A stretch of DNA of 64,000 bases from Patescibacteria group bacterium (GCA_041650335.1 JBAZLK010000002.1:124070-188069); one strand, 5' to 3'; counted from the stretch's first letter, positions 18,929 to 59,247 are shown. Notes: generated by a model from the sequence alone, not told the origin. Numbers and translations are program-made.

Positions 18929-18946
18929 AGGCGATATATTGAACGA

Positions 18947-20047: not shown

Positions 20048-20050
20048 AGG

Positions 20051-35518: not shown

Positions 35519-36256
35519 TTACATTATCGGGGTGACTGAATTCACTAAAGCATACATTAAGTCAATTTCATCTATGAGACTTTTTGCTGATTTTGGCGGC
35601 TCACCAGAAAGGCTATTAGTGTACGTCTGGAAATCTTGTCTTGAAATTCTAGTGTTTGATGAAAGTGACATAACCAGCGTTTTATCTGGGTCAGCGTTTT
35701 TTCTAAGAAAATATATCTTTGCAATAATTCCAATATCACTGTTCTCCGAAAGATAATCAGGAATATATTTATACGCTGTAAATCCGTTAAATTTGGTATT
35801 TACATCATTGATACTTTTACATTGAGCAAAATCGACCAAGCTTGTAAGATTGTTGCAAGATATATTCTTTAAATCACTAATAGCTGATAGTTCATTCAGC
35901 GTCGGAAATGATGTTTCAAAGGCACAACCGTTATTTAATCGATAGCTCAGCCAGAAAAAATTATTTTGAAGCGTATCGTGCGATAGATAGCCACACGTGA
36001 GATCGGAATCCCAGTCTGTTTTGTTATATTTGGTGAGATCCTGATCAGTGATGTTAAAAAGCGCCTTTGGCAACTTCAAGCTGACGCGAGCGTACGGTAG
36101 ATGAACCTCTTGACCATCGGTCGCAGGCTTGATCGTGACTAAATCGGGCAAGGTGCTTTTCTCGCTTTTTATGCCCTTAGCCAGCCAGAAGAAGCCGGCG
36201 GTAGCCAGTAAGAATAAACCGACCATCAATGAAATGAATAAGCCATTGCTTTTCAT
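35519..36256 (-). CDS. hypothetical secreted protein (AT-rich)
   Basis: Start reassigned to MKSNGLFISLMVGLFLLATAGFFWLA (signal anchor) at 36256. The upstream part of the track ORF overlaps the M23 gene terminator region. Confidence 0.5.
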   Translation of the reverse strand: MKSNGLFISLMVGLFLLATAGFFWLAKGIKSEKSTLPDLVTIKPATDGQEVHLPYARVSLKLPKALFNITDQDLTKYNKTDWDSDLTCGYLSHDTLQNNFFWLSYRLNNGCAFETSFPTLNELSAISDLKNISCNNLTSLVDFAQCKSINDVNTKFNGFTAYKYIPDYLSENSDIGIIAKIYFLRKNADPDKTLVMSLSSNTRISRQDFQTYTNSLSGEPPKSAKSLIDEIDLMYALVNSVTPIM

Positions 36257-36302
36257 GGGAGGGGGATTTAAAAAATGATTATTTCTAACCATATTATGGC
36301 AC

Positions 36303-36346
36303 GAAGAAAAAGGCCGGGGAAGGCAGTTAAAGATAATGCCTTCCCC
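36303..36346 (-). terminator. rho-independent terminator after the M23 peptidase gene
   Basis: Minus sense GGGGAAGGCAttatctttaacTGCCTTCCCC then GGCCTTTTTCTTCG. Confidence 0.65.
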
Positions 36347-36359
36347 GCGGACCCGAATC

Positions 36360-37016
36360 TTAGCAGAAAAAGAAGACAATACAGGCGTAATATTCAGAAT
36401 CACAGAGTGTTGGTATGACAGGATCTCCGTTGGCGTCGAAGTGATCGATGTTTTCGTACCCGACAAGATGAAGATGCGGACCCGAGGAGGTATTCCCAAT
36501 TCTGCCGAGGTACTGCCTGGCCGTGACATACTGTCCCTTCTGGACCGCCGTGGACTGGAGGTGCGCATAACGCAGGGCAACGTGCCGAGCAGGATCATAG
36601 ATCACTACCTGGAGTCCTTGGCCATAACCAGAACCAACTTTCACGACTGTTCCGTTGAACCCGGCGTATACCTTACGGCCAACTCCATGCTCATCCAAAG
36701 TTGTTCCGTCAATCCGGCTGATGTCGCGGGCATAGTAATCAGCCCCTTGATGCGAATTCATCGTTTGCCCGCAGGCATCGATGGTACCGCCTCCGGTCCT
36801 AATACCGCTCATTCCGCGCCAATCATCCGGATCCTCCCCTGGCCCAATCGGCGAAGCGATGCCCATATAGGCACCACGAACCATGGGCATTCCGCTCGAA
36901 AGATCGTCGCTGATCTCTTCGGGCGACGGGTTTGACACTGCCCCCTCCTTCGCGCATCCGACGAGAAACGACAGGGGGAGGGCGAGGATAAGGCAGAAAA
37001 AACTGAACCTCTTCAT
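36360..37016 (-). CDS. M23-family peptidoglycan metalloendopeptidase, lipoprotein
   Basis: Lipobox signal MKRFSFFCLILALPLSFLVGC. M23 motifs HxxxD-like region and HLHLVGYE (HxH). Confidence 0.8.
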   Translation of the reverse strand: MKRFSFFCLILALPLSFLVGCAKEGAVSNPSPEEISDDLSSGMPMVRGAYMGIASPIGPGEDPDDWRGMSGIRTGGGTIDACGQTMNSHQGADYYARDISRIDGTTLDEHGVGRKVYAGFNGTVVKVGSGYGQGLQVVIYDPARHVALRYAHLQSTAVQKGQYVTARQYLGRIGNTSSGPHLHLVGYENIDHFDANGDPVIPTLCDSEYYACIVFFFC

Positions 37017-37121
37017 TAGTTTGCCTCCATTTCAGAAATGCGGCCTCACTCCACTACAACAAGTAACGTGATTCTTCCAGCTCAGGTCTAGCTACCTCCT
37101 TTTTCTAGACCAGGGAAACGG

Positions 37122-37286
37122 GTTGTCGAAAGAACGGGCAATCATTACGGTCTCATACCCCTTTCAGATATGAAAAACCGGCCAATGCCCGTCGCGTTGG
37201 TTCTTGGTAAATAAATAAACGAGCCGTGAAAGCCCACCTCTCTTCACTTACAAAGTGCAAAATCAGTAAGACGCTGCTTATCCACC
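37122..37286 (-). repeat. conserved promoter plus leader element, copy A (upstream of M23 lipoprotein gene)
   Basis: Contains promoter module (rc GGTGGATAAGC ... GAAGAGAGGTGGGCTTTCACGGCTCG) and the ~95-nt leader module (rc CCAACGCGACGGGCATTGGCCGG...GATTGCCCGTTCTTTCGACAAC). Confidence 0.7.
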
Positions 37287-37342
37287 GATGGTCATTTTGA
37301 AGCTATCGCTGTGCTTGCATATTAATCTGTTTGCTCTTCGAA

Positions 37343-37945
37343 TTATTCGTTCACACTAATACTTTCAAGGATCGTGCTATACGTATCACGTACGTTTTCT
37401 AAGTCATCAGCGGTAAAAGTTGAGATTGATCCTGTTGGAGTCGATGGAGCGGTTTGTTCAATGTAGAAATTATACTTATCTCCTTGGTTGTCTTGAAATA
37501 TCGTGCTAATATACACACCAACACCGCTCAGCTTTTCAATACGATAACCTGGTAGTGAATGGAAGGTGATATTTTTAAGCGATGAACGATAGTCATCAGA
37601 TATTATCTGCTCCATATACGATTCTAGACTGGTGGCGTCTCGCGGTATGTTCTTGGTAAGATCATATTCCAGATCTCCAATGGCTGGATGCGTCATGATA
37701 GTAATTTGCCAGCTGGAACCACTAACTGTTTGTGGAACCATATCTGACCCTGTTGGAATACGTAATGTAACATTGTAATCTGTCAAAGTCTTCGTCTCGA
37801 AATCTGCGATGGTATAGTTATTTCTATTATTATTAATAATCGTAGCATTGTCATTTTGATTATTACGACCGTCGAGATAAAGCCACGCACCTACTGTGAT
37901 TGCAGCCATTATTACGACTGACCATAATACAACCTGTTTTTTCAT
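37343..37945 (-). CDS. hypothetical secreted protein (AT-rich)
   Basis: 200 aa with N-terminal signal anchor MKKQVVLWSVVIMAAITVGAWLY. No recognisable domain. Confidence 0.5.
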   Translation of the reverse strand: MKKQVVLWSVVIMAAITVGAWLYLDGRNNQNDNATIINNNRNNYTIADFETKTLTDYNVTLRIPTGSDMVPQTVSGSSWQITIMTHPAIGDLEYDLTKNIPRDATSLESYMEQIISDDYRSSLKNITFHSLPGYRIEKLSGVGVYISTIFQDNQGDKYNFYIEQTAPSTPTGSISTFTADDLENVRDTYSTILESISVNE

Positions 37946-38004
37946 TGTTTTTATAATAATAGTAATTTGTTAGAATAAGGGGAAGTTGGATTCCTCCCCC
38001 TAGT

Positions 38005-38625
38005 TTACCACACATTGTACTGTGAGAGGATATGACCCCACATCGGCAGAACGTGACGAGTAATCCTGTTGGATTCGATGAAATTTGAGTCGATCACATC
38101 CAGTCTTGTCGGATGTCCGACCCCATCCCTTTCCATAACCTGGAAAACGATGGCGGTATGAGGGATTCGTCCACCGGCATTTGATCGTTGAATGACCTGT
38201 CCGGGCCTCACCACGTTGATGCTTCGTGTCGCATAGGCATACCCGCTGGGCAGCGTGACTATCCCACCCGTCGCCCGTGAAACGATGGTGCTCCCAAACG
38301 ACTTACACTGCCCCCCGATGCCGACGCCAAGCCCACGATAATTCCAATCCCCCGCGAACCAGCAACCATCGTTACAGATAATCTCGTCCGAGGCACCCCA
38401 GTCGTTGTTGTTGTAGTGATCTCTCGAGAGAGCGTAGCAGATCTCACGATAGACTGCATACTCCCACTGCTCCGGAAGCTGTGATTGTGGTATTGGGAAA
38501 ATGCCGTTGGGCGGCCATTCCTCCTGTGACTCAGGTGATAACACACCTCCCCTCTTTCCGCAGCCAAGCAATAACCCTCCAGCAATTACCGGCAAGACCT
38601 TCAGAAAATCCCTGCGTGTGTTCAT
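38005..38625 (-). CDS. CHAP-domain-like peptidoglycan amidase/peptidase, Tat-type lipoprotein
   Basis: Start at MNTRRDFLKVLPVIAGGLLLGCG (RR motif plus lipobox). GGAGG SD. Cys/His pair GGQCKSFGSTIV ... PHTAIVFQV resembles the CHAP catalytic dyad. Confidence 0.5.
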   Translation of the reverse strand: MNTRRDFLKVLPVIAGGLLLGCGKRGGVLSPESQEEWPPNGIFPIPQSQLPEQWEYAVYREICYALSRDHYNNNDWGASDEIICNDGCWFAGDWNYRGLGVGIGGQCKSFGSTIVSRATGGIVTLPSGYAYATRSINVVRPGQVIQRSNAGGRIPHTAIVFQVMERDGVGHPTRLDVIDSNFIESNRITRHVLPMWGHILSQYNVW

Positions 38626-38650
38626 CCTCCTCTCCTTTTCTATTGGTAGT

Positions 38651-38752
38651 GTTGTCGAAAGAACGGGCAATCATTACGGTCTCATACCCCTTTCAGATAT
38701 GAAAAACCGGCCAATGCCCGTCGCGTTGGATCTCTTGGTAAAAAAATAAACG
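38651..38752 (-). repeat. conserved leader element, copy B (leader module only; about 25 nt upstream of the CHAP gene start)
   Basis: Near-identical to copies A and C across about 95 nt (gttgtcgaaagaacgggcaatcattacggtctcatacccctttcagatatgaaaaaccggccaatgcccgtcgcgttggatctcttggtaaaaaaataaacga). Confidence 0.7.
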
Positions 38753-38915
38753 AACTGACTTCAGTATAATTTATGGCTCTCGATTATCGACTGATACTAA
38801 TATATGGTTTCTATTGCAGTAATTGCCGTAGAAACCGCGGTCCGATCGCCTTGCTAGCTACCCCATCCGATTGGCCCAGTCTTTTTAGCGGACACACAAC
38901 CACTTCTTCGCTATA

Positions 38916-39557
38916 TTACTTAAGGCTCACCGATTCAGCAATCGTCATCAGCGTTTCTTCAGAAACGTCGTTTGAGATTAGTACCAGTATTTCGTTCGAG
39001 GTAATAAAATACAGGTATTGCCCAACCGCACCGCCAACCCCATTTCCCTGGTGGGTGAGTACAATTGTGTTTAGGCCGACGACGCGCGTTTCGTTTCTGA
39101 CAATAGTTTCACCAGGCATGTTCCGCTCAATCCACGGCGCCAGCCGACCCCATTGGTCAGATGAAATATTTTCATCGTTGGTATAAACTGCCAGGTGCAT
39201 GACGTCGTCCGCAAAGGTATTGAATCCATCGGGCGTATTACGGTTATGCCCCTCACTGGTGTTTTTATTTGTTCGAGAAAAACGAACCAATAAACTCTCT
39301 GTTTTAATTGGCGGCACGACCTGATAAGAAAACTCACTCGGCACGACAAGCGAAAAACCATAGCGAGCACTAATATACGCAGTCGTCTGTCCGGCGCTGT
39401 TTAACGGCCTAAATGCCGGATCGGCTTGCGTTTGACTGAGGCTAATTTGATCGGATGGTTCTGTTTTTGCCCGGCTGACCGCGAAAAGCCAGGCGCCAAG
39501 CACCACTGATAAAACCAGAATGACGGCAAAGGAAATGATGGTTGTTGGTTGTTTCAT
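38916..39557 (-). CDS. hypothetical signal-anchored protein
   Basis: 213 aa, N-terminal TM MKQPTTIISFAVILVLSVVLGAWLFAV. Confidence 0.5.
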   Translation of the reverse strand: MKQPTTIISFAVILVLSVVLGAWLFAVSRAKTEPSDQISLSQTQADPAFRPLNSAGQTTAYISARYGFSLVVPSEFSYQVVPPIKTESLLVRFSRTNKNTSEGHNRNTPDGFNTFADDVMHLAVYTNDENISSDQWGRLAPWIERNMPGETIVRNETRVVGLNTIVLTHQGNGVGGAVGQYLYFITSNEILVLISNDVSEETLMTIAESVSLK

Positions 39558-39639
39558 GGGTTGTATGCTTAATTATAGTTTATTTTATATCGTATCGTCA
39601 GAAAAGGGAAGTCGTTTTCACGGCTTCCAGGTAATCTCA

Positions 39640-40341
39640 CTATCGCCTGACTGGTACATATATCTTCCCCTGCGTAGCCCAGGAAGCCTCAAAGTCACTG
39701 ACCGAAATCTGTCTGTAACAGCCGTACGAGCTTCCCGGATCGTGTAGAATGACGTTTCCGTTCCAGCCAACTGCGAGAACCCAGTGTGCCGTTCCGCCGG
39801 AACTGACGATGCGGCCTTTTTTGATCATGACGCCGCAAATCACGGGATGTCCGTGCGCCACCTCGTTTATCACGTCATTGGCGCGATTGCCATAGTAGAC
39901 GGTGTAATGAAGTCCGTGGAATTCAGTCAGAAGGATGCCCAGGGCGTTTCGTCCGGAGAAGTTAGTGTACCATCCGTTGGGACTGTCGAAACGCGAATCA
40001 TCGAGGCGATCGGCTAAGAACTGATTTTCCGCGGTGATGACCCATGGTTCGACGTAGCCATTGTTAAAGTAGCCGCCCAGCATCACCCCGCAGGCCTGAC
40101 CGCAGTTCTTCGTGTTGTACTGATCGCCGGGCGGGAACTGGCGGAGCCAACGCATGTTGAGATGGAAACAGTAGCCAGGGTAGTCTGCCAGCAAACCGAC
40201 AATCGGTGCCAGTGAGTCCGGCAGCAACTGCTCTCCCGAGTGATCAACGGGTTCGGTTGATACGGCCTGCTCCTGCCCGCACCCCATAATTAACGTAAGG
40301 GGGAGAGCGAGAATAAGGCAGAAAAAACCGGAGCGTTTCAT
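39640..40341 (-). CDS. C39-like (papain-fold) cysteine peptidase domain lipoprotein
   Basis: Start at MKRSGFFCLILALPLTLIMGC (paralogous to the M23 signal peptide). Cys region NCGQACGVMLGGY and His region AHWVLAVGW resemble the Peptidase_C39-like catalytic dyad. Confidence 0.5.
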   Translation of the reverse strand: MKRSGFFCLILALPLTLIMGCGQEQAVSTEPVDHSGEQLLPDSLAPIVGLLADYPGYCFHLNMRWLRQFPPGDQYNTKNCGQACGVMLGGYFNNGYVEPWVITAENQFLADRLDDSRFDSPNGWYTNFSGRNALGILLTEFHGLHYTVYYGNRANDVINEVAHGHPVICGVMIKKGRIVSSGGTAHWVLAVGWNGNVILHDPGSSYGCYRQISVSDFEASWATQGKIYVPVRR

Positions 40342-40462
40342 TGGATTTACCTCCCTGTCGTACCGAACGACAGTGGTTGAGATGATGAGCAATAACACAC
40401 CCTGAAACCGAGACTCAACGCCTCCTTTTCCTCCTTTCTTAATAGAGACAGTAGCGATAGGT

Positions 40463-40638
40463 ATTGTCAAAAGAACGGGCAATCATTACGGTCTCATACC
40501 CCTTTCGGATATGCAAAACCGGCCAATGCCCGTCGCGTTGGATCTCTTGGTAAAAAAATAAACGAGCCGTGAAAGCCCGTCTTCTTTCTGCCTTTAGTAT
40601 GCGCCATCAATAATACCTGTCAATGTAGCTTATCCACC
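40463..40638 (-). repeat. conserved promoter plus leader element, copy C (upstream of C39-like lipoprotein gene)
   Basis: Has both modules. Promoter module rc GGTGGATAAgctacaTTGACA-17 nt-ATACTA then AGAAAGAAGACGGGCTTTCACGGCTCG; leader module as in copies A and B. Confidence 0.7.
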
Positions 40639-40662
40639 GACGGCTTTATGACGCGACGGCTG

Positions 40663-40698
40663 ATAAAAAAACGGACCACATGGTCCGTTTTATTTATT
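40663..40698. terminator. bidirectional rho-independent terminator
   Basis: AAAAAAACGGACCACATGGTCCGTTTTATTTATT. Confidence 0.7.
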
Positions 40699-40709
40699 AC
40701 TGCCTCGAC

Positions 40710-41336
40710 TTATTCGAGTTTTACGCTGTCAAAAATATCGCTCACCGTCTGACTCGCTTTGAGATAGGTAGCCGAGTCGGGATTTGGGTCAAATATTTCG
40801 GCTCGGATCTGCCAGATACCTGTTCCGGTCTGGATATAATAGGTGTGATATGAATCCGTGATCGGATTGCCCTGGAACCAAATCCATTGGCGGATGCCGA
40901 TATTCCCGTCGCGGTCATCCCGGGTACGGACTTTTTCGTTCGCTGTTTCGGATTTCGCATTGATAAAATCAGGCAATGAAAGATTTTCGGCGTTTGGCTC
41001 TTTGCTAATCGCCAGTCTGATAAGCGATTCAGTCACGTCTTGCTTCGAGAGCGGATCAGTGATGGTCGCCTGTTCAGTCGACTCAAGTTCGCCCACCGTC
41101 GTCGAGCCGTTTTCAGCCGAAATCGAAAGAAGCGTCAGATTTTTTGGGTACATGAAGGTAATTCCCTGCGCTTGGAACGTTTCGGTCAGCGGCGGCACTT
41201 CCGTATTTCTGTTTGTTTTCACAGAGCACATCGTGGTGGCGAAGCTCGGCACTGATTGCAAGCCATACATCACCGCCGCACCCCCGGTGAGCGCCGCCAG
41301 TAGAAAAATGACAAAGTACCAAAAATTTTTACGCAT
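40710..41336 (-). CDS. hypothetical secreted protein
   Basis: 208 aa with signal anchor MRKNFWYFVIFLLAALTGGAAVMYG. Confidence 0.5.
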   Translation of the reverse strand: MRKNFWYFVIFLLAALTGGAAVMYGLQSVPSFATTMCSVKTNRNTEVPPLTETFQAQGITFMYPKNLTLLSISAENGSTTVGELESTEQATITDPLSKQDVTESLIRLAISKEPNAENLSLPDFINAKSETANEKVRTRDDRDGNIGIRQWIWFQGNPITDSYHTYYIQTGTGIWQIRAEIFDPNPDSATYLKASQTVSDIFDSVKLE

Positions 41337-41466
41337 ACATAGCTATTTTAATGCCAAATGGTCAATATTCCCATATATTTGCGCTCCTGACGAACGGCAT
41401 GGGCGGCTTTTCGTGCTTGATAATAGTATACTACACTTATAATTTTTTTCATATGATATTTTCCCA

Positions 41467-41499
41467 GCAATAAAACGGGCACGAACTTGCGTTCGCGCC
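41467..41499 (-). terminator. rho-independent terminator after the 913-aa gene
   Basis: Minus sense GGGCGCGAACGCAAGTTCGTGCCC then GTTTTATTG. Confidence 0.55.
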
Positions 41500-41528
41500 C
41501 AGAGGACGTTTGTGCGATGTTTGTTTTC

Positions 41529-44270
41529 CTAACGGACCACGATCAGCCGGCGCTCGGATTGTTCGATGCCTGACCGGACGCGGCAGAAGTAGATGCCGCT
41601 CGCTACCCGCTGACCCTGATCGTCGCGGCCGTTCCAGATAATGGCCTGGGGTCCGGACGGCAGCTCGCCAGTGAACAGCGTCTGCACCCGCCGGCCGGAT
41701 ACGTCGTAGATCTCGACAGCCACCGGTTTCGCCTGGTTAAGGGTGAAGGAGATAGTCGTCGAGGGGTTGAGGGGATTCGGCGTGGCGGATAGCGTCTTGG
41801 CCATGCTGGCCGACGCCGACTGCCGCCACTGGACGCTGATGTCCCTCAGCCAGACTGAACCAGCGTCCTGGCCGAGGTAGAAGATGAGCTTCGCGGCCGG
41901 GTCGGTGACTTCCGGCCAGAACGGCAGGACGATCGGCTGATCGGCCGAGGCCAGAGTGAGATTGACGCCTTGCCACAGCGGCTTGGCACCGTTCGAACAC
42001 TCGATCACAGCCGTGATCGCGCACGGCGGATTAGCCGCGCCGGTAAAAACGAGCTCGCACGCGCTTCCGGCCTGCGTGTAAACCCAGTCCTGCGTGAGAG
42101 AAAGCTCGTGCCACTGCCGGGCATGGTCCACGCTCACTCTGAGAGTGTGATCGTCCTGGACCACCGGCACCAGCCAGTCGAGACCGGCCGGCTTGGTGAA
42201 TTGCCAGCAGTCAAGGCCGCGGGTGAAGCTGCCGTTGCTGATGAAGCTGCCCGGATCATCCTCGCCCGTGCAGGTTGGAGGTGGCGGGGGTGGTGGAGGC
42301 GGCGGACTGTCGTCAGACACGAGCCGGATATTGCGGATCCGGAACATGCTTCCGCCGGTCTCGCCGAACGCCCAGGTCAGCTTCGCCGTTGAAGCAGTCC
42401 TGGTAACGGTGATGGGAAAACGGTGCTCTTCCCAGCCGCCCGGCGACTGGCGATAATCCTGCCACAAACCGCAGTTGACGTACTGGCCGTTCACCTGCAC
42501 GGTCAGACCGAGCATAGTGTGGACGGTCCGCACGCTCTGCTGTTCATAGCTCAGGATCAGCTTCTCGCCGGCCGTGATCCGGGGCAGGGTTTGTGACAGC
42601 TGGACGCTCCAGATGTCGGCATTCCCGTGCATGACGAATTCGGCCATGGGCGTCGCCAGATTAATGTCGCAGTGCTCGGTCGGCCAGATCGGCGTTTCCC
42701 AGCAGTCGAGACAGCTCTCGAAGCTTCCGTTTGCGATAAGGTTGTCAGGAGAACGATAGCACTCGTCTGCCCCAGCCTTGGCCATCTTGTTCTCGTCCAC
42801 GCACCGGCTCAAGTCGATCTCGGAAACGGAATGTCCGTCCGTCTCTAAACGCCAGTGCTTGCCGCTTCGATGTTCGTAGAAGTCCTGGGTAATTTTACCG
42901 TCCATCTCGAACTGATCGGTGGTCGGATACCCAAACCTGTCTACGTCGCCGTGGCTTTCGAAATACGCCAGGATATTCCTGTCGTAGACGCAGTGGGCTT
43001 CAGCCGTACAGGAGTTATGGATAGCGCCGGCCGGATCATAGAAGATGATTGCCTTGGACCCGTCCGGACGCCTGAAGTCCTGAACGTCATAGCCGTCCCA
43101 GTTGTGGACCCGAGCCGTGCCGCTTCCGCCTGGAATAGCATGACCCAGATTCTGGGAGCCGCCGTTCCGGTTGTAGCACTCGGCAAAGAGATAGCTTGAT
43201 TCTGGGTGCCAGCCATTTTCGTAGTAGCCGGGGGCGCAGTTGGGATACCAGGCGAAATGCGGCAGACCATTGGCCCAGAGCATCACACCGTCCGTGCACT
43301 CCTGGATAGCGGAGATGCCGTCAAGCCGCGTAACGGCGTTCTCTTTGTAGTTTTGCTTGTAGTAACTTCGGAGATTCGATGGTACGTTGCTCTCGTCCCG
43401 GATCGGCATCTTGGCCGGGCATCTCGGGCCGCCACGCTGCGTCCAGAAAGTCCATAGGCCTGAATGCAAGACAATCGCGGCTCTGGCTCCTCCCAGCGCA
43501 TCGTAAACGATGGCGTTATCGCCGAAGAACCCGCCGTTGAAGTGCCAGATAGCGCAATTCTTCGGCATGCCCCGAGCGTCGTAGAGATCATTCGGATCCC
43601 AGGCGTAGTACCAGGGATGGCTGGAATTAGCCCGACGGGCTGCGTCCAAATCCCACATCTGATACTCAGGGTAACCAATCATGGCCGAGCCGTAGCGACT
43701 GTAAGCCTGGTCAAACAGGGCGGTGTTGCGGGAAACAACAATACTGCCATAGATAGGATTTCCACCGTCCGAAAAGCTTGATGAGATCGACTGGCCGTTT
43801 GGGTTGTCGCCTTGTTGTCGCTGATAATGGAGATGCGCGTTGTATCTTCCATCGGCATCACCCATCAAGCCGATTACCTGGCCAGCTTTTACCTCTTCAC
43901 CAGGCTTGACGAACAACTTCTCTAGATGTCCATTCAAACCCTCATCTTCTTCCGCGCCCTTGTAGCGAATAACCGCGCAGTTACCCCAATCGTCTTGGCC
44001 AGGTCGGTAATCCTGGGCATAAACAACCACTCCATCTTCAGTTGCGACGATGGGATAACCAATGTTTCGCTCCCTATAAAGTCCATTAACACAGAAATCC
44101 CACGCGAACTCAAGCTTGCTGCCTCGAAGATGGGTTGGGGTATCAGCGTTTCCTTGCCCACAAACCAATACAGTGCCACCGATGACGGGGAGATTCTGTT
44201 CAGCTACTGACGCGGATGAATACACAAAACCAAGCACCAAAAACAACCCCAGGATCGATGCTGACTTCAT
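41529..44270 (-). CDS. large secreted multidomain protein: N-terminal M23 peptidase domain, central beta-rich region, poly-Pro linker, C-terminal Por/FlgD-Ig-like sorting-type tail
   Basis: Signal peptide MKSASILGLFLVLGFVYSSASVA. M23 motifs (GTVLVCGQGN..., HLHYQ). An 11xPro run. The last ~85 aa, SATPNPLNPSTTISFTLNQAKPVAVEIYDVSGRRVQTLFTGELPSGPQAIIWNGRDDQGQRVASGIYFCRVRSG..., match the T9SS/FlgD-like C-terminal domain pattern. Confidence 0.7.
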   Translation of the reverse strand: MKSASILGLFLVLGFVYSSASVAEQNLPVIGGTVLVCGQGNADTPTHLRGSKLEFAWDFCVNGLYRERNIGYPIVATEDGVVVYAQDYRPGQDDWGNCAVIRYKGAEEDEGLNGHLEKLFVKPGEEVKAGQVIGLMGDADGRYNAHLHYQRQQGDNPNGQSISSSFSDGGNPIYGSIVVSRNTALFDQAYSRYGSAMIGYPEYQMWDLDAARRANSSHPWYYAWDPNDLYDARGMPKNCAIWHFNGGFFGDNAIVYDALGGARAAIVLHSGLWTFWTQRGGPRCPAKMPIRDESNVPSNLRSYYKQNYKENAVTRLDGISAIQECTDGVMLWANGLPHFAWYPNCAPGYYENGWHPESSYLFAECYNRNGGSQNLGHAIPGGSGTARVHNWDGYDVQDFRRPDGSKAIIFYDPAGAIHNSCTAEAHCVYDRNILAYFESHGDVDRFGYPTTDQFEMDGKITQDFYEHRSGKHWRLETDGHSVSEIDLSRCVDENKMAKAGADECYRSPDNLIANGSFESCLDCWETPIWPTEHCDINLATPMAEFVMHGNADIWSVQLSQTLPRITAGEKLILSYEQQSVRTVHTMLGLTVQVNGQYVNCGLWQDYRQSPGGWEEHRFPITVTRTASTAKLTWAFGETGGSMFRIRNIRLVSDDSPPPPPPPPPPTCTGEDDPGSFISNGSFTRGLDCWQFTKPAGLDWLVPVVQDDHTLRVSVDHARQWHELSLTQDWVYTQAGSACELVFTGAANPPCAITAVIECSNGAKPLWQGVNLTLASADQPIVLPFWPEVTDPAAKLIFYLGQDAGSVWLRDISVQWRQSASASMAKTLSATPNPLNPSTTISFTLNQAKPVAVEIYDVSGRRVQTLFTGELPSGPQAIIWNGRDDQGQRVASGIYFCRVRSGIEQSERRLIVVR

Positions 44271-45800: not shown

Positions 45801-48572
45801 TTATTCTACCGGCAGAGTAAATATAAACGTGCTCCCCTTGCCCAAACCTTCGCTCTCGACCCAGATCTGTCCGCCGTGGGCGTCGACGATGCGCTTGGCA
45901 ATATAGAGACCGAGACCGGACCCGTCCGGCTGGACTTGGGCGATGCCCTCCCCGCGGACAAACTTCGTGAACAGCCGCTTGGCGTCATCCGGCGGGATAC
46001 CGCGGCCCGTGTCCTTCACGGAAACGCTGATATTGCCGTTGATCTTCTGAACCGAAACCGTGACGCTGCCCTGCGGTGTGTATTTTATCGCGTTATCGAC
46101 GAGATTCAAAATGACGTCTTTCAATTTATCCGAATCAACCATCAGGGCGGGCAGTTTTTTGGCCGGCTTTTTGTATTCCAGCTTGAGGCCTTTTTCCTCA
46201 GCCACCTTGATGATTTCGATCAATTCGGTCTGGATCAGTTCTTCGATTTGCGCCGGTTTCTTATCGAGTACGAATTTACCCGCCTCGATCTTCGTAATAT
46301 TGAGGAATAAATTTACCATCCGGACCATGCGCTTGCTCGCATCCAGCACTTGTTTCAAAATATTCAGTTTTTCTTCGTCAATCTTTCCGAAATCGCCGTC
46401 CACCAGCATGGACAGCCAGCCCTGGATGCCGGTCAGCGGGGTGCGCAATTGGTGCGAGGCGATGGAGATAAACTCGTTCTTCGCCTCGTCGAGCTGTTTC
46501 AAATGATCGTTCGCCTTGGCCAGCTCGGTATTCGTCAGCCGTAGCTCCTCGACCAACTTCAGATTCCTAGTGACAATACCCATCTGATCGGCCAGCGACT
46601 CCATCATCTGGATCTCGTCCTCAGATACTTCTTTCTTGGATTTTTGGATGACAAACACGATCGATCCGATGATCTCCTTTTCCGAGAAAATCGGCGCGGC
46701 CACGATCGTCTTCGCGCCCACGAGCTTTTGCATAGCATAGCAGATCGGCTTTGGAATCGGCGGGGACAGGAAATCAGATAGCGATTCGCTGATCTGGATA
46801 TTTCCCGTGCGGATTGCCTCCGTCGCCAGATCCTTATCCGCCATCGTGCCGCTGTATTGTTCGAGCTGTTTGGGCAGGAGTTTGACCGCGGCTTGAGTGA
46901 TTTTTGTCATCGTGATGGCCACCGGATGCGTTTTTTCACCTTCTCCGCGTAAAATAATAACCCCCCCGATGTACCCCAGCTCATTGGCGATGCCGTCAAC
47001 GATCGCCTGGGTAACCTTCTTGAAGTCGAGCGACCGAGTGATGATATTGCCGATACTCTGGAGAGCGTTCAAGTAGACATTCCGGTTCTTTAGCTCCACG
47101 TTGGCCATCTGAAGATCGGCCGTGGCGTGCTCGACCTCAACCTTCAGCTTTTCACTGAATGATTTTACCTCGTCATAGAGCCGCGACTTCTCGATCGCCG
47201 ACCCCATGAGCGGGCTCAAGACTTCGAGCAGTTTCAGGTCGTTTCCGCTATAGACATCGCCGGATCGCTTCTGGCCCAGCACATAGAGGCCAGTCACCTC
47301 GCCCTCGAGCATGATCGGCGCGATCACTGCCGCGCCCGTGGCTTTTACCTCAGCTAGTGATTTCTCGAGCTGTTTGCGCTCGCGTTCATCGGCCGTATCG
47401 GAGATTTTTCGCTCAAGCTCTTCGAGGACAACCACTTTTTCGGTTTTTTGAACGTATTTGGCGACCGAGCCATTCGCATCGACGCGCGTATTATTACCGT
47501 TACCGTTGTTATTTCTACGCTTGCTGTATGACTGTTTGTTTTTCGTGAGCAATAATATGTCCGCATATTTGATTTTCAGAATACTGGCGAGCTTCCACTC
47601 CACTGACGACAGCAGATCATCGAGCTCGATCTTCACACTGACCATTTCGGTCAGTATCTGGGTGGCTTCGGTATAGTCCACCTCGCCTTTGAAGAATATT
47701 GCATCGGTAATTTTTGCCAGTAAACGCTTCAACGGATCAAAACCGAAAACTATTACAAGCGAGACAAGGATAGTCGCGAGAAACCCCGACCCGCCAAGCT
47801 CTTGGATAAAAAGACCGGTCAGAAACGTAGCTGAAGTGAAAGCAAACGTAGTAAAAAGAATGAGAAAGAAATAGATAATGGAGCGAGATATAACCACCCT
47901 AATATCAAACAATCTGTGTTTGACGATTGCATAGGCGGTAATAATCGCATAAATGAAAACAAAATAATTACCAACAGGATAAATATTTAATCTAAAATCT
48001 AGTAAAAAATTTGTAGATCCACCAACAAATCCAATCAATGACGCGACAAACATGTATAATAACTGTTGTGATCTGAGACCAAGAGCTTTTTTATATTCAA
48101 TATATATATTTCTGATACTCCAAAAAACGACTGCAACAAAATATATAAGAAATGTTGGGTATATGCTTCCAGTTTTTACCGGCCAATAGCCAAAATATGT
48201 CCTGGGACTCACTTGCTCGATAAACAATTTAGAAAAAACGAGAATCGAAAATATTACCGAAATGACATACAAAAAAATAGTAATATACAAGTATTTCTTT
48301 TTTGTCCTGCCGGTTAATACAACGCTATAACGAAAAAATACGGCGGGTAATAACGCAGTACCAATATACAACAACCTTTGCCAAATCAATGCCTGATCAG
48401 AGTTATTAGCAATGACGGTACCGAATAAACCTATAGTCCATATTGAAGTTACACAACTGACAAGAAACCATATTTGATTTAATTCTTTCTTCCTATTTCC
48501 AAATAAAACAAACAGTCCTAGTGCAACAGTTAATATCGCGGTTAAAAGACAGGTATACGCAAAAGTGTTCAT
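45801..48572 (-). CDS. sensor histidine kinase with N-terminal 7TM sensor module and GAF domains
   Basis: 923 aa. The first ~300 aa are multi-TM. H-box FISIASHQLRTPLTGIQGWLSML, N/G boxes (NLVDNAIKYT, DTGRGI, GSGLGLYI). Confidence 0.8.
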   Translation of the reverse strand: MNTFAYTCLLTAILTVALGLFVLFGNRKKELNQIWFLVSCVTSIWTIGLFGTVIANNSDQALIWQRLLYIGTALLPAVFFRYSVVLTGRTKKKYLYITIFLYVISVIFSILVFSKLFIEQVSPRTYFGYWPVKTGSIYPTFLIYFVAVVFWSIRNIYIEYKKALGLRSQQLLYMFVASLIGFVGGSTNFLLDFRLNIYPVGNYFVFIYAIITAYAIVKHRLFDIRVVISRSIIYFFLILFTTFAFTSATFLTGLFIQELGGSGFLATILVSLVIVFGFDPLKRLLAKITDAIFFKGEVDYTEATQILTEMVSVKIELDDLLSSVEWKLASILKIKYADILLLTKNKQSYSKRRNNNGNGNNTRVDANGSVAKYVQKTEKVVVLEELERKISDTADERERKQLEKSLAEVKATGAAVIAPIMLEGEVTGLYVLGQKRSGDVYSGNDLKLLEVLSPLMGSAIEKSRLYDEVKSFSEKLKVEVEHATADLQMANVELKNRNVYLNALQSIGNIITRSLDFKKVTQAIVDGIANELGYIGGVIILRGEGEKTHPVAITMTKITQAAVKLLPKQLEQYSGTMADKDLATEAIRTGNIQISESLSDFLSPPIPKPICYAMQKLVGAKTIVAAPIFSEKEIIGSIVFVIQKSKKEVSEDEIQMMESLADQMGIVTRNLKLVEELRLTNTELAKANDHLKQLDEAKNEFISIASHQLRTPLTGIQGWLSMLVDGDFGKIDEEKLNILKQVLDASKRMVRMVNLFLNITKIEAGKFVLDKKPAQIEELIQTELIEIIKVAEEKGLKLEYKKPAKKLPALMVDSDKLKDVILNLVDNAIKYTPQGSVTVSVQKINGNISVSVKDTGRGIPPDDAKRLFTKFVRGEGIAQVQPDGSGLGLYIAKRIVDAHGGQIWVESEGLGKGSTFIFTLPVE

Positions 48573-50640: not shown

Positions 50641-51324
50641 CTACTTCTTCAATACTATCACTGCAATCATAACCGCCACGACACCGGCAAATAGCGGAGA
50701 ATATGCCATGTTAATTGATAAATCAAAAAGGGGGAAGATGCGATCCATAACCACGCCAACTAAACCGCTAATACCAATTATTATAGTAACGGCGGTTACC
50801 TGTTTTTTTAGTTGCACCGAGACAATGTTTATTTTTTTTATTAACAAATATAGTGATAACAACAAATATATCAACGATACTATGAAGAGCGCCCAGAACG
50901 CATTACCTGGTTTAATATCGATAAATCCTTCATTTACATTAACATCATTAATGAAGCTTGGCTGTAATATTATTGCTGGCAAGACAATAAATATTGATCC
51001 AAATATTACCAATCGGCGAACAAGAGGATCCATATTTGTCGGCAACGGATAATACATTGCCAATGCAAGGAGACTTACGAAACTGGCCGTACCAGAGTAG
51101 AATGCTGCCCTGGCAATAATCAACTTTGACATTTCTGTATTCGAAGTCATGAGAAGTCCAACAAAGAAGGACATTAGTGAAAAACCAAAAAGCATAGCGC
51201 AGAGCGCATAGATAGACTGAGTTTTTTGATATCGAAAATAAATATACAATGCGAGAATCAATTCTAATATGGAAAGAGACCAAAGAATTATTGTATTTGC
51301 TTCAGTAATGATACTCATTTTCAT
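50641..51324 (-). CDS. hypothetical polytopic membrane protein
   Basis: 227 aa, about 6-7 TM, AT-rich. Confidence 0.45.
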   Translation of the reverse strand: MKMSIITEANTIILWSLSILELILALYIYFRYQKTQSIYALCAMLFGFSLMSFFVGLLMTSNTEMSKLIIARAAFYSGTASFVSLLALAMYYPLPTNMDPLVRRLVIFGSIFIVLPAIILQPSFINDVNVNEGFIDIKPGNAFWALFIVSLIYLLLSLYLLIKKINIVSVQLKKQVTAVTIIIGISGLVGVVMDRIFPLFDLSINMAYSPLFAGVVAVMIAVIVLKK

Positions 51325-52048: not shown

Positions 52049-53509
52049 TTAAACTTTTACCCCAATCCGCTCAAGCGCGTTTTTATAAAGTATCACATTT
52101 TCTAATGCATAGGCCGCCTCCTGCGCGACATTCTGTAAATATCTGACGTCTTCTGTTGTATACGGTTCGTTCGATGTCTTACTGCCAAGAAGAACAAGCG
52201 CAGAAAGTCCGTGGCGCGTAGCTAGCGGCAATACCGCTTCGGTTTTCAGATTGTCCATTTCCTTTTCGCACTGCTCGAGCCGTCGCTGTTCAAGACCGAA
52301 TGCTTCCTGAAATAGATACGGGATTTCTTCACGGATTAGCATTTTCATGGAATCTTTCAAAAAACTCGGTAATGCTTCTTCTGCGCGAATACTGATATTG
52401 CCGTCTAATGAGTCATATGTTCCCTGGCGCTTGTTTACTATTAAACAAGTTATTCGATTCACGTTCACAACCTTTAATATTTCACCCGATAGCTCTCGGC
52501 AAAACTCTTCCAAGTCCACTAAACCGATCACGCGCTGCCGAACATCTTCAATCATCTGTTTCATATTCGGCTGGCGCGAAAAAAACAAACGGTTAATTAT
52601 TCGTATCAACCATTTACGAAATGGGATAAAGGTTACGGCAATAACAAGCACTGAAGCAAAATTCACAAATGCACGGTTGAATGCGTACTTCTGGACTAAA
52701 TAATCATTCGCAAGCAGAACTAAATAACCATAGACGATTAGTAATAATATAAGAACCAGCGTATGGGCCGCGCCCTTTTTCATTACTATCCTTACGTCCA
52801 TAAAACGATACCGTAGTATGGCATACGCAATAAGCCACGTAAACACAGCTAAACCAATCAAACTTAGAGGATATAATTTATTGTAACCAAGCGATGGCAG
52901 TAGTAAATTAAATAGTAAAGAAAATGTCGCAACGCAAATAAACGCAAAGATAATATAACGTAGTTGAATCTTTGTAACTTTTGATGTAGTTGATTTGAAA
53001 ATATTGAATAATTTTTTCAATCCAAAAAATGCATATATTAATAAATAAATAATATATGCAGGATACAATTGACTAATACTCGGACGATAACCGTAATTTT
53101 CAATATATTCGACATCAGAGATGTTATACCTTGTCGGAACTATTGCTACAATGGCTATGGATGGTAAAAAAAGTAGCAAAATTTGCCACCACGAAAATGG
53201 CGTCTTTTTTTTATAGAGAGTATACGCAAAAAGTAAAAATAATGTCGGGGAAAACGCCGGTCCGAGAAAAGTCAGTCTCGCCCATAAAAGAGCGGCTTCT
53301 TTGCCACCAACAAGATCGGACATAATGTTCGCAAACAACCACACAGAGAGACTTAGCACTAACGATCCAAAGAAGATCAGATTTGGTCTTTTTTTGCTCT
53401 TAATAAATACGGTAATGGATATTACCAGGAGCGCAAAAAAACAAATTACTGAGGTAACTTCAATAATTTGGATCTCTAGACTATGATATATTCCAGGATT
53501 AATCTCCAT
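52049..53509 (-). CDS. membrane sensor with N-terminal 7TM module and C-terminal GAF-like domain (no kinase domain)
   Basis: The first ~300 aa are multi-TM and resemble the N-terminus of the 45801..48572 kinase. The C-terminus is GAF-like (ALVLLGSKTSNEPYTTEDVRYLQNVAQEAAYALENVILY). Confidence 0.5.
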   Translation of the reverse strand: MEINPGIYHSLEIQIIEVTSVICFFALLVISITVFIKSKKRPNLIFFGSLVLSLSVWLFANIMSDLVGGKEAALLWARLTFLGPAFSPTLFLLFAYTLYKKKTPFSWWQILLLFLPSIAIVAIVPTRYNISDVEYIENYGYRPSISQLYPAYIIYLLIYAFFGLKKLFNIFKSTTSKVTKIQLRYIIFAFICVATFSLLFNLLLPSLGYNKLYPLSLIGLAVFTWLIAYAILRYRFMDVRIVMKKGAAHTLVLILLLIVYGYLVLLANDYLVQKYAFNRAFVNFASVLVIAVTFIPFRKWLIRIINRLFFSRQPNMKQMIEDVRQRVIGLVDLEEFCRELSGEILKVVNVNRITCLIVNKRQGTYDSLDGNISIRAEEALPSFLKDSMKMLIREEIPYLFQEAFGLEQRRLEQCEKEMDNLKTEAVLPLATRHGLSALVLLGSKTSNEPYTTEDVRYLQNVAQEAAYALENVILYKNALERIGVKV

Positions 53510-53617: not shown

Positions 53618-54154
53618 TTATTGTACTTTTTCAATCTCATTGGTTAATTTGGTCTTCGCATATTCCGTGCCAGCCTCGTCGCGAAAGATATTACCCGGCA
53701 GTGCAGTGAAAATCGCCTGCATCGTTGAAAGCGGGGTGTATGCCTGTAAATCATCGCGATAATACAGATAGAGCAGGCGCTCATCGCCGGGTTTGAGGTT
53801 CTGTCCGCCTTGGGTGTCGGCGATGACGACGAGATTTCCATTTTCACCCCCAAGAATTGACACAATAAGTTTTTTCGACGCAGTTCCCTTCCAGACTTCC
53901 TGCGGCTCCACCTGCCAATCCGTGTAAATCATTTTCTCTCCCGTATCTTTCTCGAAGACTTCCCGGACATTGCTCGAGATGAATCGGCCGGTAAGAACAA
54001 TCTGTGATTCTTTTGCCAGATCGGCTGGCGTAAGTGTCACCTCTAACTTGCTAACACTTGTGGTAGGTTTATCGCCGCGCAGTGCGATTATCGCAATGAG
54101 ACTTCCGATAATAAACACGCCGGCCAAACCAATGATGATTGTTCGCTTTTTCAT
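53618..54154 (-). CDS. hypothetical secreted protein
   Basis: 178 aa, signal anchor MKKRTIIIGLAGVFIIGSLIAIIAL. Confidence 0.45.
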   Translation of the reverse strand: MKKRTIIIGLAGVFIIGSLIAIIALRGDKPTTSVSKLEVTLTPADLAKESQIVLTGRFISSNVREVFEKDTGEKMIYTDWQVEPQEVWKGTASKKLIVSILGGENGNLVVIADTQGGQNLKPGDERLLYLYYRDDLQAYTPLSTMQAIFTALPGNIFRDEAGTEYAKTKLTNEIEKVQ

Positions 54155-54172
54155 ATTTTTTTACATAAAGTA

Positions 54173-54736: not shown

Positions 54737-54806
54737 CTTGTACCCTTTTCCACCCGTCATATTAATTATAGCTATGTCAATGGATAATTGGAAATAAAGC
54801 AAAAAA

Positions 54807-54882
54807 CGAGCCCGAAAGCCCGTCTCTTTCTAACACTAGAATACTCTCTACGTATATTATGTCAACTACCTGTTATCCACCC
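54807..54882 (-). repeat. conserved promoter element, copy D (upstream of secreted metalloprotease gene)
   Basis: rc GGGTGGATAAcaggtagTTGACA-16 nt-TATTCT-agtgtt-AGAAAGAGACGGGCTTTCGGGCTCG. Confidence 0.65.
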
Positions 54883-58785: not shown

Positions 58786-58812
58786 TGGTCACCTCCTGAG
58801 AAAGGATTGAGT

Positions 58813-59018: not shown

Positions 59019-59178
59019 TTAGCTACCCTCCTCTCCGCCCATAGGAGTCAGGTTGATTAGCCAGAGGTTCCGGCATTCGGAATGTGGCAAAACCGCCAGA
59101 GACCGATGGGTCTTTTGTTGTAAAAGATCGATAACACAAAAAGAGCCGGTTTTTCTGCCTGCCTTCGGAAGGCAAGAA

Positions 59179-59247
59179 AGAAAGCCCGTCTCTTTCTGCC
59201 TGCATGATACACCATCTAGAGAACCGGTCAAGATCGTTTTATCCACT
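59179..59247 (-). repeat. conserved promoter element, copy E (upstream of the precursor peptide)
   Basis: rc GTGGATAAaacgatcTTGACC-16 nt-TATCAT-gcaggc-AGAAAGAGACGGGCTTTC. Confidence 0.65.

Follow-up and report, generated by a model that had tools for sequence, protein, structure and literature searches.

Three near-identical repeats in the leaders of secreted hydrolase genes of a Patescibacteria genome, probably an enlarged form of a terminator-like hairpin

Several cis-regulatory RNAs collected in Rfam are situated upstream of cell-wall hydrolase genes, among them the ydaO/c-di-AMP riboswitch and the NLPC-P60 and lysM-type motifs. The glpD leader carries a promoter-proximal inverted repeat, which can terminate transcription and, in the read-through RNA, can stabilise the 5' end. 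To judge from titles (PMC3997798), the Bacillus subtilis glpD leader with GlpP has a dual role in antitermination and mRNA stability, and the ompA, papA and aprE leaders, cryIIIA STAB-SD and the SP82 polypurine stabiliser belong to the 5'-end stabilisers. In conditional-termination leaders, which are attenuators, the 5' UTR contains an intrinsic terminator (PMC5314783).

The window analysed here is a stretch of 64,000 nucleotides from a Patescibacteria group bacterium. Patescibacteria are mostly uncultured and are thought to live attached to host cells, and to our knowledge almost nothing is known about gene regulation in this group. A direct repeat of about 105 nt is present three times in the window, at 37120-37224 (A), 38649-38753 (B) and 40461-40565 (C). 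The flanking genes are all on the minus strand and each copy stands upstream of one of them:

36360..37016, minus strand: gene of copy A, M23 peptidase lipoprotein
37122..37215, minus strand: copy A, core of about 95 nt (hairpin proper 37133-37193)
38005..38625, minus strand: gene of copy B, lipoprotein of a Pfam-less family with invariant GGxCKxF, HTAIV and DVIDSN motifs
38651..38752, minus strand: copy B, core (hairpin proper 38662-38722)
39640..40341, minus strand: gene of copy C, Peptidase_C39_2-like lipoprotein
40463..40560, minus strand: copy C, core (hairpin proper 40474-40534)

The initial annotation had described a near-identical leader module of about 95 nt in three copies, and this was borne out: the mean column identity in the alignment of the three copies is 92%, and a 29-mer of the core occurs exactly three times, against none expected from shuffled sequences. 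In the ungapped comparison with copy B, copy C is 96% and copy A 86% identical, the low value of A being caused by a 2-nt deletion, which is found in its 5' flank together with one substitution; one more change of A falls in the T-run. The statement that copy C differs only apically had to be corrected, since two of its tail positions are also changed (UUUCGACAAC to UUUUGACAAU). Copy B starts within the 3' strand of what is a small hairpin in A and C (AGUUCGUUU vs GGCUCGUUU), and in the alignment it is a mosaic of A and C. The latter two share islands of 87-100% identity amid flanks of 25-65%, and their weaker similarity continues on both sides of the core, signal-peptide codons included.

The three served genes represent one functional class, secreted cell-wall-hydrolase lipoproteins, where the product of the copy-B gene may be NlpC/P60- or CHAP-like, as assigned by motif only. 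The distance from the copy to the start codon is 104 nt in A, 24 nt in B and 120 nt in C, varying as had been claimed, and the element lies in 5' leaders, also as proposed. In A and C the core is located about 45-50 nt from the predicted transcription start; in B this distance is about 30 nt. Between the hairpin and the ATG there are no more than 24 nt in copy B and about 45 nt in L053 (a locus of the same genome, 2 kb outside the window), which obliges the transcript to run through the hairpin.

Read in the gene sense, each copy gives a stable hairpin of three tiers (z about -4.4). The 63-nt hairpin reaches -27.3 kcal/mol in A and -28.5 kcal/mol in C (z = -4.5 and -4.2, respectively), and none of 200 shuffles was equally stable in either case. 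The sense hairpin makes use of G.U pairs, and the antisense fold is weaker by about 9 kcal/mol. A three-tier stem had been predicted before and it does exist, but the apical stem is longer than described, consisting of UCAUAUCU/GGGUAUGA in A and B, and it closes a GAAAG loop. In copy C the outermost U-A pair of the apical stem is lost through a U to G change, and the single pair change of the inner stems, also in the apical stem, turns U.G into C-G. Loops and bulges are almost fully conserved across the three copies. An alternative fold with 1:4 + 2:3 pairing is available because the strands are duplicated, which makes it a trivial consequence; it is isoenergetic in A (-36.9 vs -36.3 kcal/mol) and 6 kcal/mol worse in C (-40.0 vs -46.0 kcal/mol), and the tail stays unfreed. 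A switch between alternative folds was rejected on these grounds, the energies fitting in A only. Leader peptides were rejected as well: the candidates were a tiny AUG-AGA-CCG-UAA frame in the hairpin and a possible 23-codon UUG ORF after core C, neither of which is conserved in A.

The copies match no Rfam family at the gathering threshold or even at E<=10 (4227 models), in agreement with the earlier remark that they could not be matched to a known riboswitch class. The element shares with ydaO, NLPC-P60 and lysM-type RNAs its position in the 5' leader of peptidoglycan hydrolase genes, and it is unlike them in having no Rfam match and no conserved multi-helix core across species. Covariance model R1, built from the three copies, recovered no further member, whether in the window, in another 20 kb of this genome or in the relatives, and blastn-short revealed nothing similar to the core interior in 450 kb of related DNA. 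A strict two-part exact pattern had 0 matches among public genome and metagenome contigs, a search that diverged copies would escape. No match to the core was obtained in plasmids or phages; a 17-mer gave none in viral contigs, and the 12 matches of a 16-mer there were all dismissed as chance, with 28-42 of 92 positions identical and unrelated flanks. TTACCAA was set aside as a shared motif, being too common to be meaningful. An integron attC site was rejected since ATCCAAC occurs in the 5' flank and the complementary GTTGGAT is absent at the 3' end. Literature on Patescibacteria cis-regulatory RNAs yielded nothing about this leader element. The closest M23 ortholog (L041) and the two paralogous modules of L053 possess the stem base and the tail without the inner tiers. 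Together with the empty Rfam and R1 searches this argues against a conserved riboswitch-type module of about 95 nt, as initially suggested; no aptamer core conserved across species was seen, the inner tiers being confined to the three copies.

As a leader hairpin the core is probably nothing unusual in kind, but it points to a recurrent 5' control module that combines GCCGTCG words, a GTGGATAA box and a promoter with a terminator-like hairpin and a ribosome-binding site. The parts found in the window are as follows, the promoters and terminators being consensus matches predicted by scanner:

37206..37251, minus strand (scanner 37239-37217): small terminator-like hairpin and U-run upstream of core A, GGUGGGC-UUUCAC-GGCUCGUUUAUUUAUUU, 50.5 bits with covariance model R2
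37278..37285, minus strand: GTGGATAA box of module A; -35 and -10 degenerate
38763..38790, minus strand: predicted promoter of module B, TCGATA-16-TATACT, without GTGGATAA box
40549..40594, minus strand (scanner 40582-40560): small terminator-like hairpin and U-run upstream of core C, AGAAAGAAGACGGGC-UUUCAC-GGCUCGUUUAUUUUUUU, 54.9 bits with R2
40596..40637, minus strand: module C, GTGGATAA box (40630-40637), then predicted promoter TTGACA-16-CATACT (40623-40596)
40668..40691, strand unassigned: strong hairpin terminator of the upstream gene, before module C (scanner)
54793..54880, minus strand: fourth module, upstream of a secreted M10-like metalloprotease gene (54173-54736), with GTGGATAA, TTGACA-16-TATTCT and small hairpin GAGACGGGC-UUUCGG-GCUCGUUUUUU
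59130..59246, minus strand: fifth module, upstream of a small ORF and a radical-SAM gene, with GTGGATAA, TTGACC-16-TATCAT and a hairpin

The small second hairpin just upstream of the core in A and C is an addition to what had been described before. The predicted promoter of copy B is unlike those of A and C and has no GTGGATAA box, which upholds the claim that this copy lies behind a different promoter. Candidate promoters inside the core (sigma-70, sigma-54 and ECF-type spacing, inspected by eye) were rejected, no convincing -10 or -12 being seen. The hairpin of the fifth module has the same 5' strand (AGAAAGAGACGGGC) and a different interior. Independent terminators precede module C, the module at 59.2 kb and that of L041; owing to the separate terminator at 40668..40691 the core is not needed for ending transcription of the upstream gene.

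Outside the enlarged copies, the recurrent part is the stem base with its flanks only, in which a purine-rich 5' strand ending with GACGGGC pairs with GCCCGUUCUUU, directly after a sigma-70-like promoter and usually with an upstream GTGGATAA box. The same genome has the small terminator-like hairpin in front of secreted hydrolase genes at six more places, and at least eight related Patescibacteria contigs have it there too; its stem sequence varies between some lineages. A fixed geometry of -10 hexamer, about 7 nt, purine-rich strand, clamp and U/C-rich tail was recognised in the window modules C, 54.8 kb and 59.2 kb, in both modules of L053, and in L041, L042, L049, L033 (three copies), L023 and L046. 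The order of promoter and then terminator-like hairpin was called independently by the consensus scanner, which besides the small hairpins of A and C reported those at 54828-54801, L053 8436-8459 and 9933-9956, L041 1440-1460 and L049 6166-6184; A, C, L049 and L020 have hairpins in tandem. Model R2 was built from five small hairpins, L042 having been misaligned in an earlier alignment of six, and it finds members absent from its seed (L042 and L033 at E 0.012, L053 at 3e-7 and 2e-5) as well as ordinary terminators of the same genome, which score like the weaker members. In a hand-anchored table 93 of 98 clamp cells of the base stem are standard pairs, the overall pairing of the base stem is 80% compared with 50-60% when the strands are slid, and three pairs are changed on both sides. 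Relatives carry 5' modules that are 94-100% identical and extend into the signal peptides.

The module is common to tandem cassettes (a secreted hydrolase with its cognate membrane-anchored partner), to a metalloprotease gene and to a peptide/radical-SAM pair. If confirmed, it would define a co-regulated "secreted arsenal" regulon, whose regulator could then be sought with concrete DNA and RNA motifs, and would account for the fragmentation of these loci in metagenome assemblies.

We consider the three repeats, with good confidence, as a genome-specific enlarged form of the promoter-proximal terminator-like hairpin that belongs to the shared 5' module of the hydrolase genes. This module, found before the secreted hydrolase genes of one Patescibacteria clade, would comprise GCCGTCG words, the GTGGATAA box, a sigma-70-like promoter, the hairpin, whose purine-rich 5' strand (AGAAAGARGACGGGC) would pair with a pyrimidine-rich 3' strand (GCYCGUUCUUUU), and a Shine-Dalgarno site. 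The core resembles the small hairpin after a partial duplication in tandem: its 5' strand is the same as the 5' strand and loop start of the small hairpin (GACGGGCAUUG), its 3' half (AUGAGACCGUAAUGAUUGCCCGUUCUUU) aligns with the entire small hairpin (AUGAGACGGGCAUUGUUGCUCGUUUUUU), and its tail CGUUCUUUsGACAAy is common to the small-hairpin modules. That the enlarged hairpin works as a leader attenuator or stabiliser, the explanation taken as a whole, has in our estimation an even chance; the narrower reading, a cis-acting attenuator of the intrinsic-terminator type in the nascent leader, is possible at somewhat less than that. The GC clamp followed by UUCUUU(C/U) would serve as terminator, in tandem with the canonical small terminator in A and C, and hairpins in read-through transcripts may additionally protect the 5' end. 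With the clamp, the U/C tail and the tandem terminators, full-length mRNA would need read-through or antitermination; no antitermination factor was identified, and no convincing antiterminator fold was found.

In the small hairpins the scanner calls a GC-rich stem with a U-rich tract immediately after it on the sense strand, and the hairpins lie between the predicted promoter and the start codon of the downstream gene. The core has a clamp of 7-8 bp and then UUCUUUCG or UUCUUUUG (5-6 U of 8), which was read directly because its loop exceeds the scanner limit. The arrangement is thus like that of conditional-termination leaders, with a GC-rich hairpin and then a U-rich tract between promoter and start codon in the gene sense, with tandem hairpins and with repeated strands that permit alternative pairings. 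It is unlike them in that no conserved sensor domain, leader peptide, T-box or RAT-type antiterminator element was found here, that the small hairpins begin at about +1 and so leave no upstream RNA for an antiterminator, and that in the core the interior is unusually large and the U-tract weak. This tail, with 5-6 U in 8, and the large interior are atypical of efficient intrinsic terminators and speak against termination by the core. The near-identity of the copies can be ascribed to exchange of sequence between paralogous 5' modules, as the mosaic copy B and the 94-100% identical modules of the relatives suggest. The sharp islands could instead mean strong selection on every core nucleotide, which a plain terminator would not need.

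As an enlarged form of a leader hairpin common to many such genes of the lineage, the repeats are more likely an attenuation or mRNA-stability element, whose copies recombination keeps similar, than a ligand-sensing riboswitch. A sensor RNA, either riboswitch or protein-binding riboregulator with the inner tiers and loops as recognition surface, is quite improbable, even if it would suit the loops and bulges that hardly vary between the three copies, the stable multi-tier fold, the two alternative folds possible in A and C and the single functional class of the downstream genes: Rfam has no match, homologs were found neither by the exact pattern in public contigs nor by covariance model and blastn in related loci, the inner tiers are missing in the closest ortholog and in paralogs of the same regulon, and they offer no covariation. 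A related and doubtful proposal is that the enlarged hairpin is a dedicated platform for an antiterminator, an RNA-binding protein or a small ligand, adding control on three of at least nine hydrolase cassettes over the GTGGATAA-box promoter; if true, it would be a new lineage-restricted class of cis-regulatory RNA over the secreted cell-wall-hydrolase arsenal of an episymbiotic CPR bacterium. At the other extreme, the extra 85 nt or so may be a neutral internal duplication of the small hairpin, gene-converted among three neighbouring modules and with no added function. Such a by-product, unlikely in our view, fits the absence of the inner tiers from paralogous and orthologous modules, the mosaic copy B with the generally concerted evolution of modules in relatives, and an interior that has no homolog anywhere searched; it does not fit the confinement of identity to the hairpin module next to A/C leader diverged to 25-65%, the very stable and strand-specific hairpin, or the apical-stem change of C from U.G to C-G.

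The preferred attenuator or stabiliser hairpin has to be weighed also against a pure 5' stabiliser, in which the hairpins sequester the 5' end and block 5'-end-dependent decay without terminating transcription, helped by a Shine-Dalgarno-like sequence that lies some 20-30 nt downstream and has no start codon. Of 9 independent promoters, 6-7 have the purine-rich 5' strand beginning at the expected +1, seven nt past the -10; in minimum-energy folds the predicted 5' end is paired with the U-rich strand, and behind the hairpin of A, C, L020, L015, L025 and L042 stands an SD-like AGAAAGGAGG that lacks a start codon. A predicted 5' end paired in a stem-loop with an SD-like purine run after it resembles the 5'-terminal stabilisers and STAB-SD, and, as with aprE, secreted proteins are encoded downstream; 5'-terminal stem-loops, the aprE leader, the polypurine stabiliser and STAB-SD, as far as titles in PMC3997798 tell, are precedents. 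The glpD leader is similar in having a promoter-proximal inverted repeat that could both terminate and stabilise, and different in its factor, no GlpP-like one being identified here, in the genes served (secreted hydrolases), in the CPR host and in showing no sequence similarity. A 5'-terminal stem can be assigned by inference to the small hairpins, but the core is internal, about 30-50 nt downstream of the predicted starts (45-50 nt in A/C, 30 nt in B), the small hairpin of L053 module 1 lies about 75-80 nt from its predicted promoter, and the hairpins here, unlike the known stabilisers, carry terminator-type U-tracts; a canonical GC stem with a U7 run would terminate unless prevented. Pure stabilisation is unlikely. 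Translational control by the pyrimidine tail UUCUUUC as an anti-Shine-Dalgarno, pairing with the upstream purine strand or the ribosome-binding site, is the most improbable of these readings. The minimum-energy fold of the copy-B leader pairs UCUUUC with part of the GGAGAGGAGG site, whose unpaired probability is 0.33-0.35 (weak support, in copy B only), whereas the A and C ribosome-binding sites are about 100 nt away and unpaired with the tail, and the complementarity is short and of low information. A DNA-level operator, a mobile repeat (MITE/REP) or a trans-acting small RNA gene is very unlikely too. The module is an inverted repeat in DNA, the repeat breaks assemblies, and a small RNA gene would likewise have a promoter and then a terminator-like hairpin, but copy B leaves no room for another promoter before its gene, and the arm spacing of the inverted repeat ranges from 4 to about 70 nt among members, which is incompatible with a dimeric DNA-binding site. 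A MITE/REP was rejected since the three copies have a single orientation, all in leaders, with no matching ends, terminal inverted repeats or target duplications and no plasmid or phage match (about 290 kb of the contig is outside the count). The RNA nature of the element, supposed from the beginning, is supported by its G.U pairs, by the sense strand folding about 9 kcal/mol better than the antisense and by a base stem that is kept with other sequence in the relatives.

The core, the roughly 95-nt leader repeat, is a new, local form of a familiar type of leader element; the wider promoter-hairpin module and the cassette arrays are a more interesting outcome than the repeat itself. The three near-identical copies described in the initial annotation are real: a repeat search returned them as direct copies, the window holds exactly three occurrences of a 29-mer of the core (none expected from shuffles), and mean column identity in the alignment of copies A, B and C is 92%. 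Since the genes of the repeat region all lie on the minus strand, the copies stand upstream of three lipoprotein genes.

37120-37224, minus-strand gene sense, repeat unit of copy A
36360-37016, minus strand, M23 peptidase lipoprotein behind copy A, start 104 nt from the copy
38649-38753, minus-strand gene sense, repeat unit of copy B
38005-38625, minus strand, Pfam-less lipoprotein with invariant GGxCKxF, HTAIV and DVIDSN behind copy B, 24 nt from the copy
40461-40565, minus-strand gene sense, repeat unit of copy C
39640-40341, minus strand, Peptidase_C39_2-like lipoprotein behind copy C, 120 nt from the copy

Folded in gene sense, the 63-nt hairpin has energies of -27.3 and -28.5 kcal/mol (z = -4.5 and -4.2), with 0 of 200 shuffles equally stable; the antisense fold is poorer by about 9 kcal/mol, as expected of an RNA stem with G.U pairs. 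The three tiers of the stem had been drawn correctly; the apical one is longer than was stated and closes a GAAAG loop.

Of the proposal of a cis-acting leader RNA, the leader position and the sense-strand hairpin stand, but the idea of a riboswitch class is not supported and has a low probability. No Rfam family reached its gathering score in the repeat region and none matched the copies even at E<=10. A covariance model built from copies A, B and C recovered no other member, whether in the window, in another 20 kb of this contig or in the relatives (loci with homologs of the lipoproteins behind A, B and C). The strict two-part core pattern had 0 occurrences in 185,579 species genomes and the JGI metagenome contigs, nothing similar to the core interior was found in 450 kb of related DNA, and the plasmid and phage databases gave no blastn match to the repeat. 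Viral-contig matches to a 16-mer of the core were judged to be chance.

The architecture recurs in the relatives without the core itself (e.g. L023, L033, L041, L042, L049 and L046). A sigma-70-like promoter often has GTGGATAA 6-8 nt ahead of it and GCCGTCG words farther up, and past the promoter comes a hairpin, in which a purine-rich strand ending in GACGGGC, about 7 nt past the -10 hexamer, leads through a variable interior to GCYCGUUCUUUU. The GTGGATAA box, whose reverse complement TTATCCAC is DnaA-box-like, stands 6-8 nt upstream of the -35 of the hydrolase promoters; in many cases one or two GCCGTC(G) words lie before it, at a spacing of about 9 or 17-18 nt. Four of its five occurrences in the window belong to such modules, and from this sequence context it looks like a conserved transcription-factor site defining a regulon.

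37278-37285, minus strand, GTGGATAA box
40630-40637, minus strand, GTGGATAA box
54873-54880, minus strand, GTGGATAA box; module at about 54.8 kb before an M10-like metalloprotease
59239-59246, minus strand, GTGGATAA box; module at about 59.2 kb before a small ORF and a radical-SAM gene
about 8318-8326 of L053 (same genome, about 2 kb beyond the window), GTGGATAA box
1297, 3351 and 4768 of L033 and 6110 of L049, GTGGATAA boxes in relatives
3940 of L046, 765 of L032, 295 of L022 and 3863 of L028, GTGGATAA boxes in further relatives

At the fifth window site (13162-13240, plus strand) an AT-rich stretch and the perfect hairpin CACACGTTGATTGTGAACGTGTG come after the box; this may be another regulon member with a different leader. 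The small ORF (about 58790-59017, ATG at 59017) and the gene of the radical-SAM/4Fe-4S protein (57517-58785) lie behind a box-promoter-hairpin module of the hydrolase type, and our guess is that the pair could be a modified-peptide cluster.

A consensus scanner independently called a promoter and then a terminator-like hairpin at the module sites. A covariance model of five small hairpins (short terminator-like hairpins with a U-run) picked up unseeded members in L042 and L033 (E 0.012) and in L053 (3e-7 and 2e-5); it also matches plain terminators of this genome with scores similar to those of the weaker members. When 14 leaders were anchored by hand and tabulated, the seven pairs of the clamp, the GC-rich base stem, were standard in 93 of 98 cells, and overall pairing was 80% compared with 50-60% when the partner strand was slid. 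At three pairs both partners differ from one leader class to another, e.g. GACGGGC/GCCCGUU versus GGGCGUC/GACGCUC. The interior is 4 to about 70 nt long, and different genomes have unrelated interiors. Tandem hairpins occur in leaders A and C, in L049 (by the scanner) and in L020, and separate terminators of the upstream gene precede modules C and 59.2 kb and, by sequence reading, L041. L020 is a 3.4-kb contig with 118-nt identical repeats at its ends (1-175 and 3230-3448). A different long hairpin (ACUCCCAUGCA...GGGC) is present there in several copies, as two hairpins in tandem before the gene, of which the second is flanked, like the core of the window, by CCAAGAGAAAGG and GUUCUUUCG.

A likely origin of the core is suggested by its neighbours. 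In leaders A and C a small hairpin with its U-run precedes the core, and copy B begins within the 3' strand of the small hairpin; another promoter is indeed predicted ahead of B, as had been proposed. Two kb outside the window, this contig has an M23 and a C39 gene that each lie behind TGAGACGGGCATTGTTGCTCGTTTTTT(T)CGTTCTTTGGACAATCGG...GAAAGGAGACAAGAATGAACACGCG. This L053 leader shares with the core the 5' strand (GACGGGCATTG) and the tail CGTTCTTTsGACAAy, and with copy B the ribosome-binding site and first codons, and it is without the inner tiers, the two inner stems of the core. Because MAFFT aligns the whole L053 small hairpin to the 3' half of the core, the core gives the impression of a small hairpin that was partly duplicated in tandem and then became a single long stem. 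In the closest M23 ortholog (L041, 71% identical; its 245-aa partner is orthologous too) only the small hairpin is present.

The T-run and 5' flank of copy B equal those of C, and its apex and tail those of A, which is a crossover pattern. A and C are 87-100% identical over the hairpin module and 87% at the signal-peptide start, compared with 25-65% elsewhere. Hydrolase cassettes within one genome of the relatives likewise carry long, near-identical 5' regions: in L015 a repeat of at least 300 nt is 100% identical and runs, by eye, through the intergenic region into signal-peptide codons, L025 has a 94% repeat, L024 a 100% repeat of 137 nt, and in L033 box, promoter, hairpin and signal peptide are identical among three cassettes. 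L002 (window 38680 to 37171), a short contig of this organism assembled independently from another sample, runs from within copy B to within copy A; such contig ends indicate that the repeats break assemblies. Taken together, these observations point to recombination between paralogous 5' modules as the source of the near-identity. Selection on the hairpin module is a possible alternative that would account for the sharpness of the identity islands. A further short contig of the organism, L054 (starting at L053 9929), likewise begins inside a leader module, and assembly breaks at the repeats may be the reason that many homologs are found on contigs of 1-3 kb.

As to function, the elements combine leader position, a sense-strand hairpin, a conserved clamp with pyrimidine tail, a terminator-like form and, in several leaders, a tandem arrangement. 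The hairpins would attenuate transcription, and expression would thus need read-through or antitermination; they may also shield the 5' end of the read-through mRNA, which is possible since the purine strand starts at the expected +1. Both effects have known precedents (PMC5314783; titles among the references of PMC3997798). In the core the U-tract is weaker (5-6 U of 8) and the interior large, therefore its terminator efficiency is uncertain. Folding also predicts other pairings between the duplicated strands, but as a switch they are not convincing, and predicted pairing of the copy B tail with part of the ribosome-binding site is a minor rival.

In several leaders the hairpin is followed, after 20-30 nt, by a strong Shine-Dalgarno-like run (AGAAAGGAGG) that has no usable start codon, and the real ribosome-binding site comes about 75-100 nt later. 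The corresponding run of copy B is the real site. In A, C and the relatives it resembles STAB-SD-type stabilisers.

37095-37099, minus strand, Shine-Dalgarno-like run of leader A
40420-40442, minus strand, Shine-Dalgarno-like run of leader C
also in L020, L015, L025, L042 and L050

Leader C holds a possible 23-codon UUG ORF ending within the main ribosome-binding site.

The window belongs to a 368-kb metagenome contig whose proteins NCBI labels "Patescibacteria group bacterium". The locus is an array of pairs, in which a higher-GC secreted hydrolase gene (M23, C39-like, M10-like or, by motif, NlpC/P60-like) is followed by a lower-GC gene of a membrane-anchored protein.

35519-44270, window, hydrolase/partner tandem pairs
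53618-54736, window, hydrolase/partner tandem pairs
8506-11446, L053, hydrolase/partner tandem pairs

Partner type tracks hydrolase type across genomes: C39 hydrolases have 213/216-aa partners (47% identity), M23 hydrolases 245-aa partners (33%) and the copy-B family 413-aa partners (48%). By analogy, the pairs resemble enzyme-immunity or enzyme-inhibitor pairs.

HisKA_7TM proteins adjoin the hydrolase arrays in three genomes (one full GAF-HisKA-HATPase kinase, several 7TM-only); no response regulator was seen near the window genes.

45801-48572, 50641-51324 and 52049-53509, window, HisKA_7TM proteins
18090-20319, L015, HisKA_7TM protein
819-2264, 5668-8545 and 14818-17691, L043, HisKA_7TM proteins

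In a 913-aa M23 protein (window 41529-44270), without the leader module, a poly-proline linker is combined with a FlgD_ig / Por_Secre_tail C-terminus, a sorting domain that seems unusual for a Patescibacterium; its gene has a GC of 0.60-0.65 versus 0.35-0.55 for the locus and may have been acquired horizontally. Several 23S_rRNA_IVP-family genes are scattered among the hydrolase cassettes of relatives (L015 4817-5176 and 7283-7726; L043 2304-2675, 3954-4349 and 5088-5474), and the duplicated 5' module of L015 takes in the 3' end of one of them. Finally, the RNase P RNA match at window 21454-22015 (176 bits) spans 562 nt against a 367-position model, thus it must contain large insertions.
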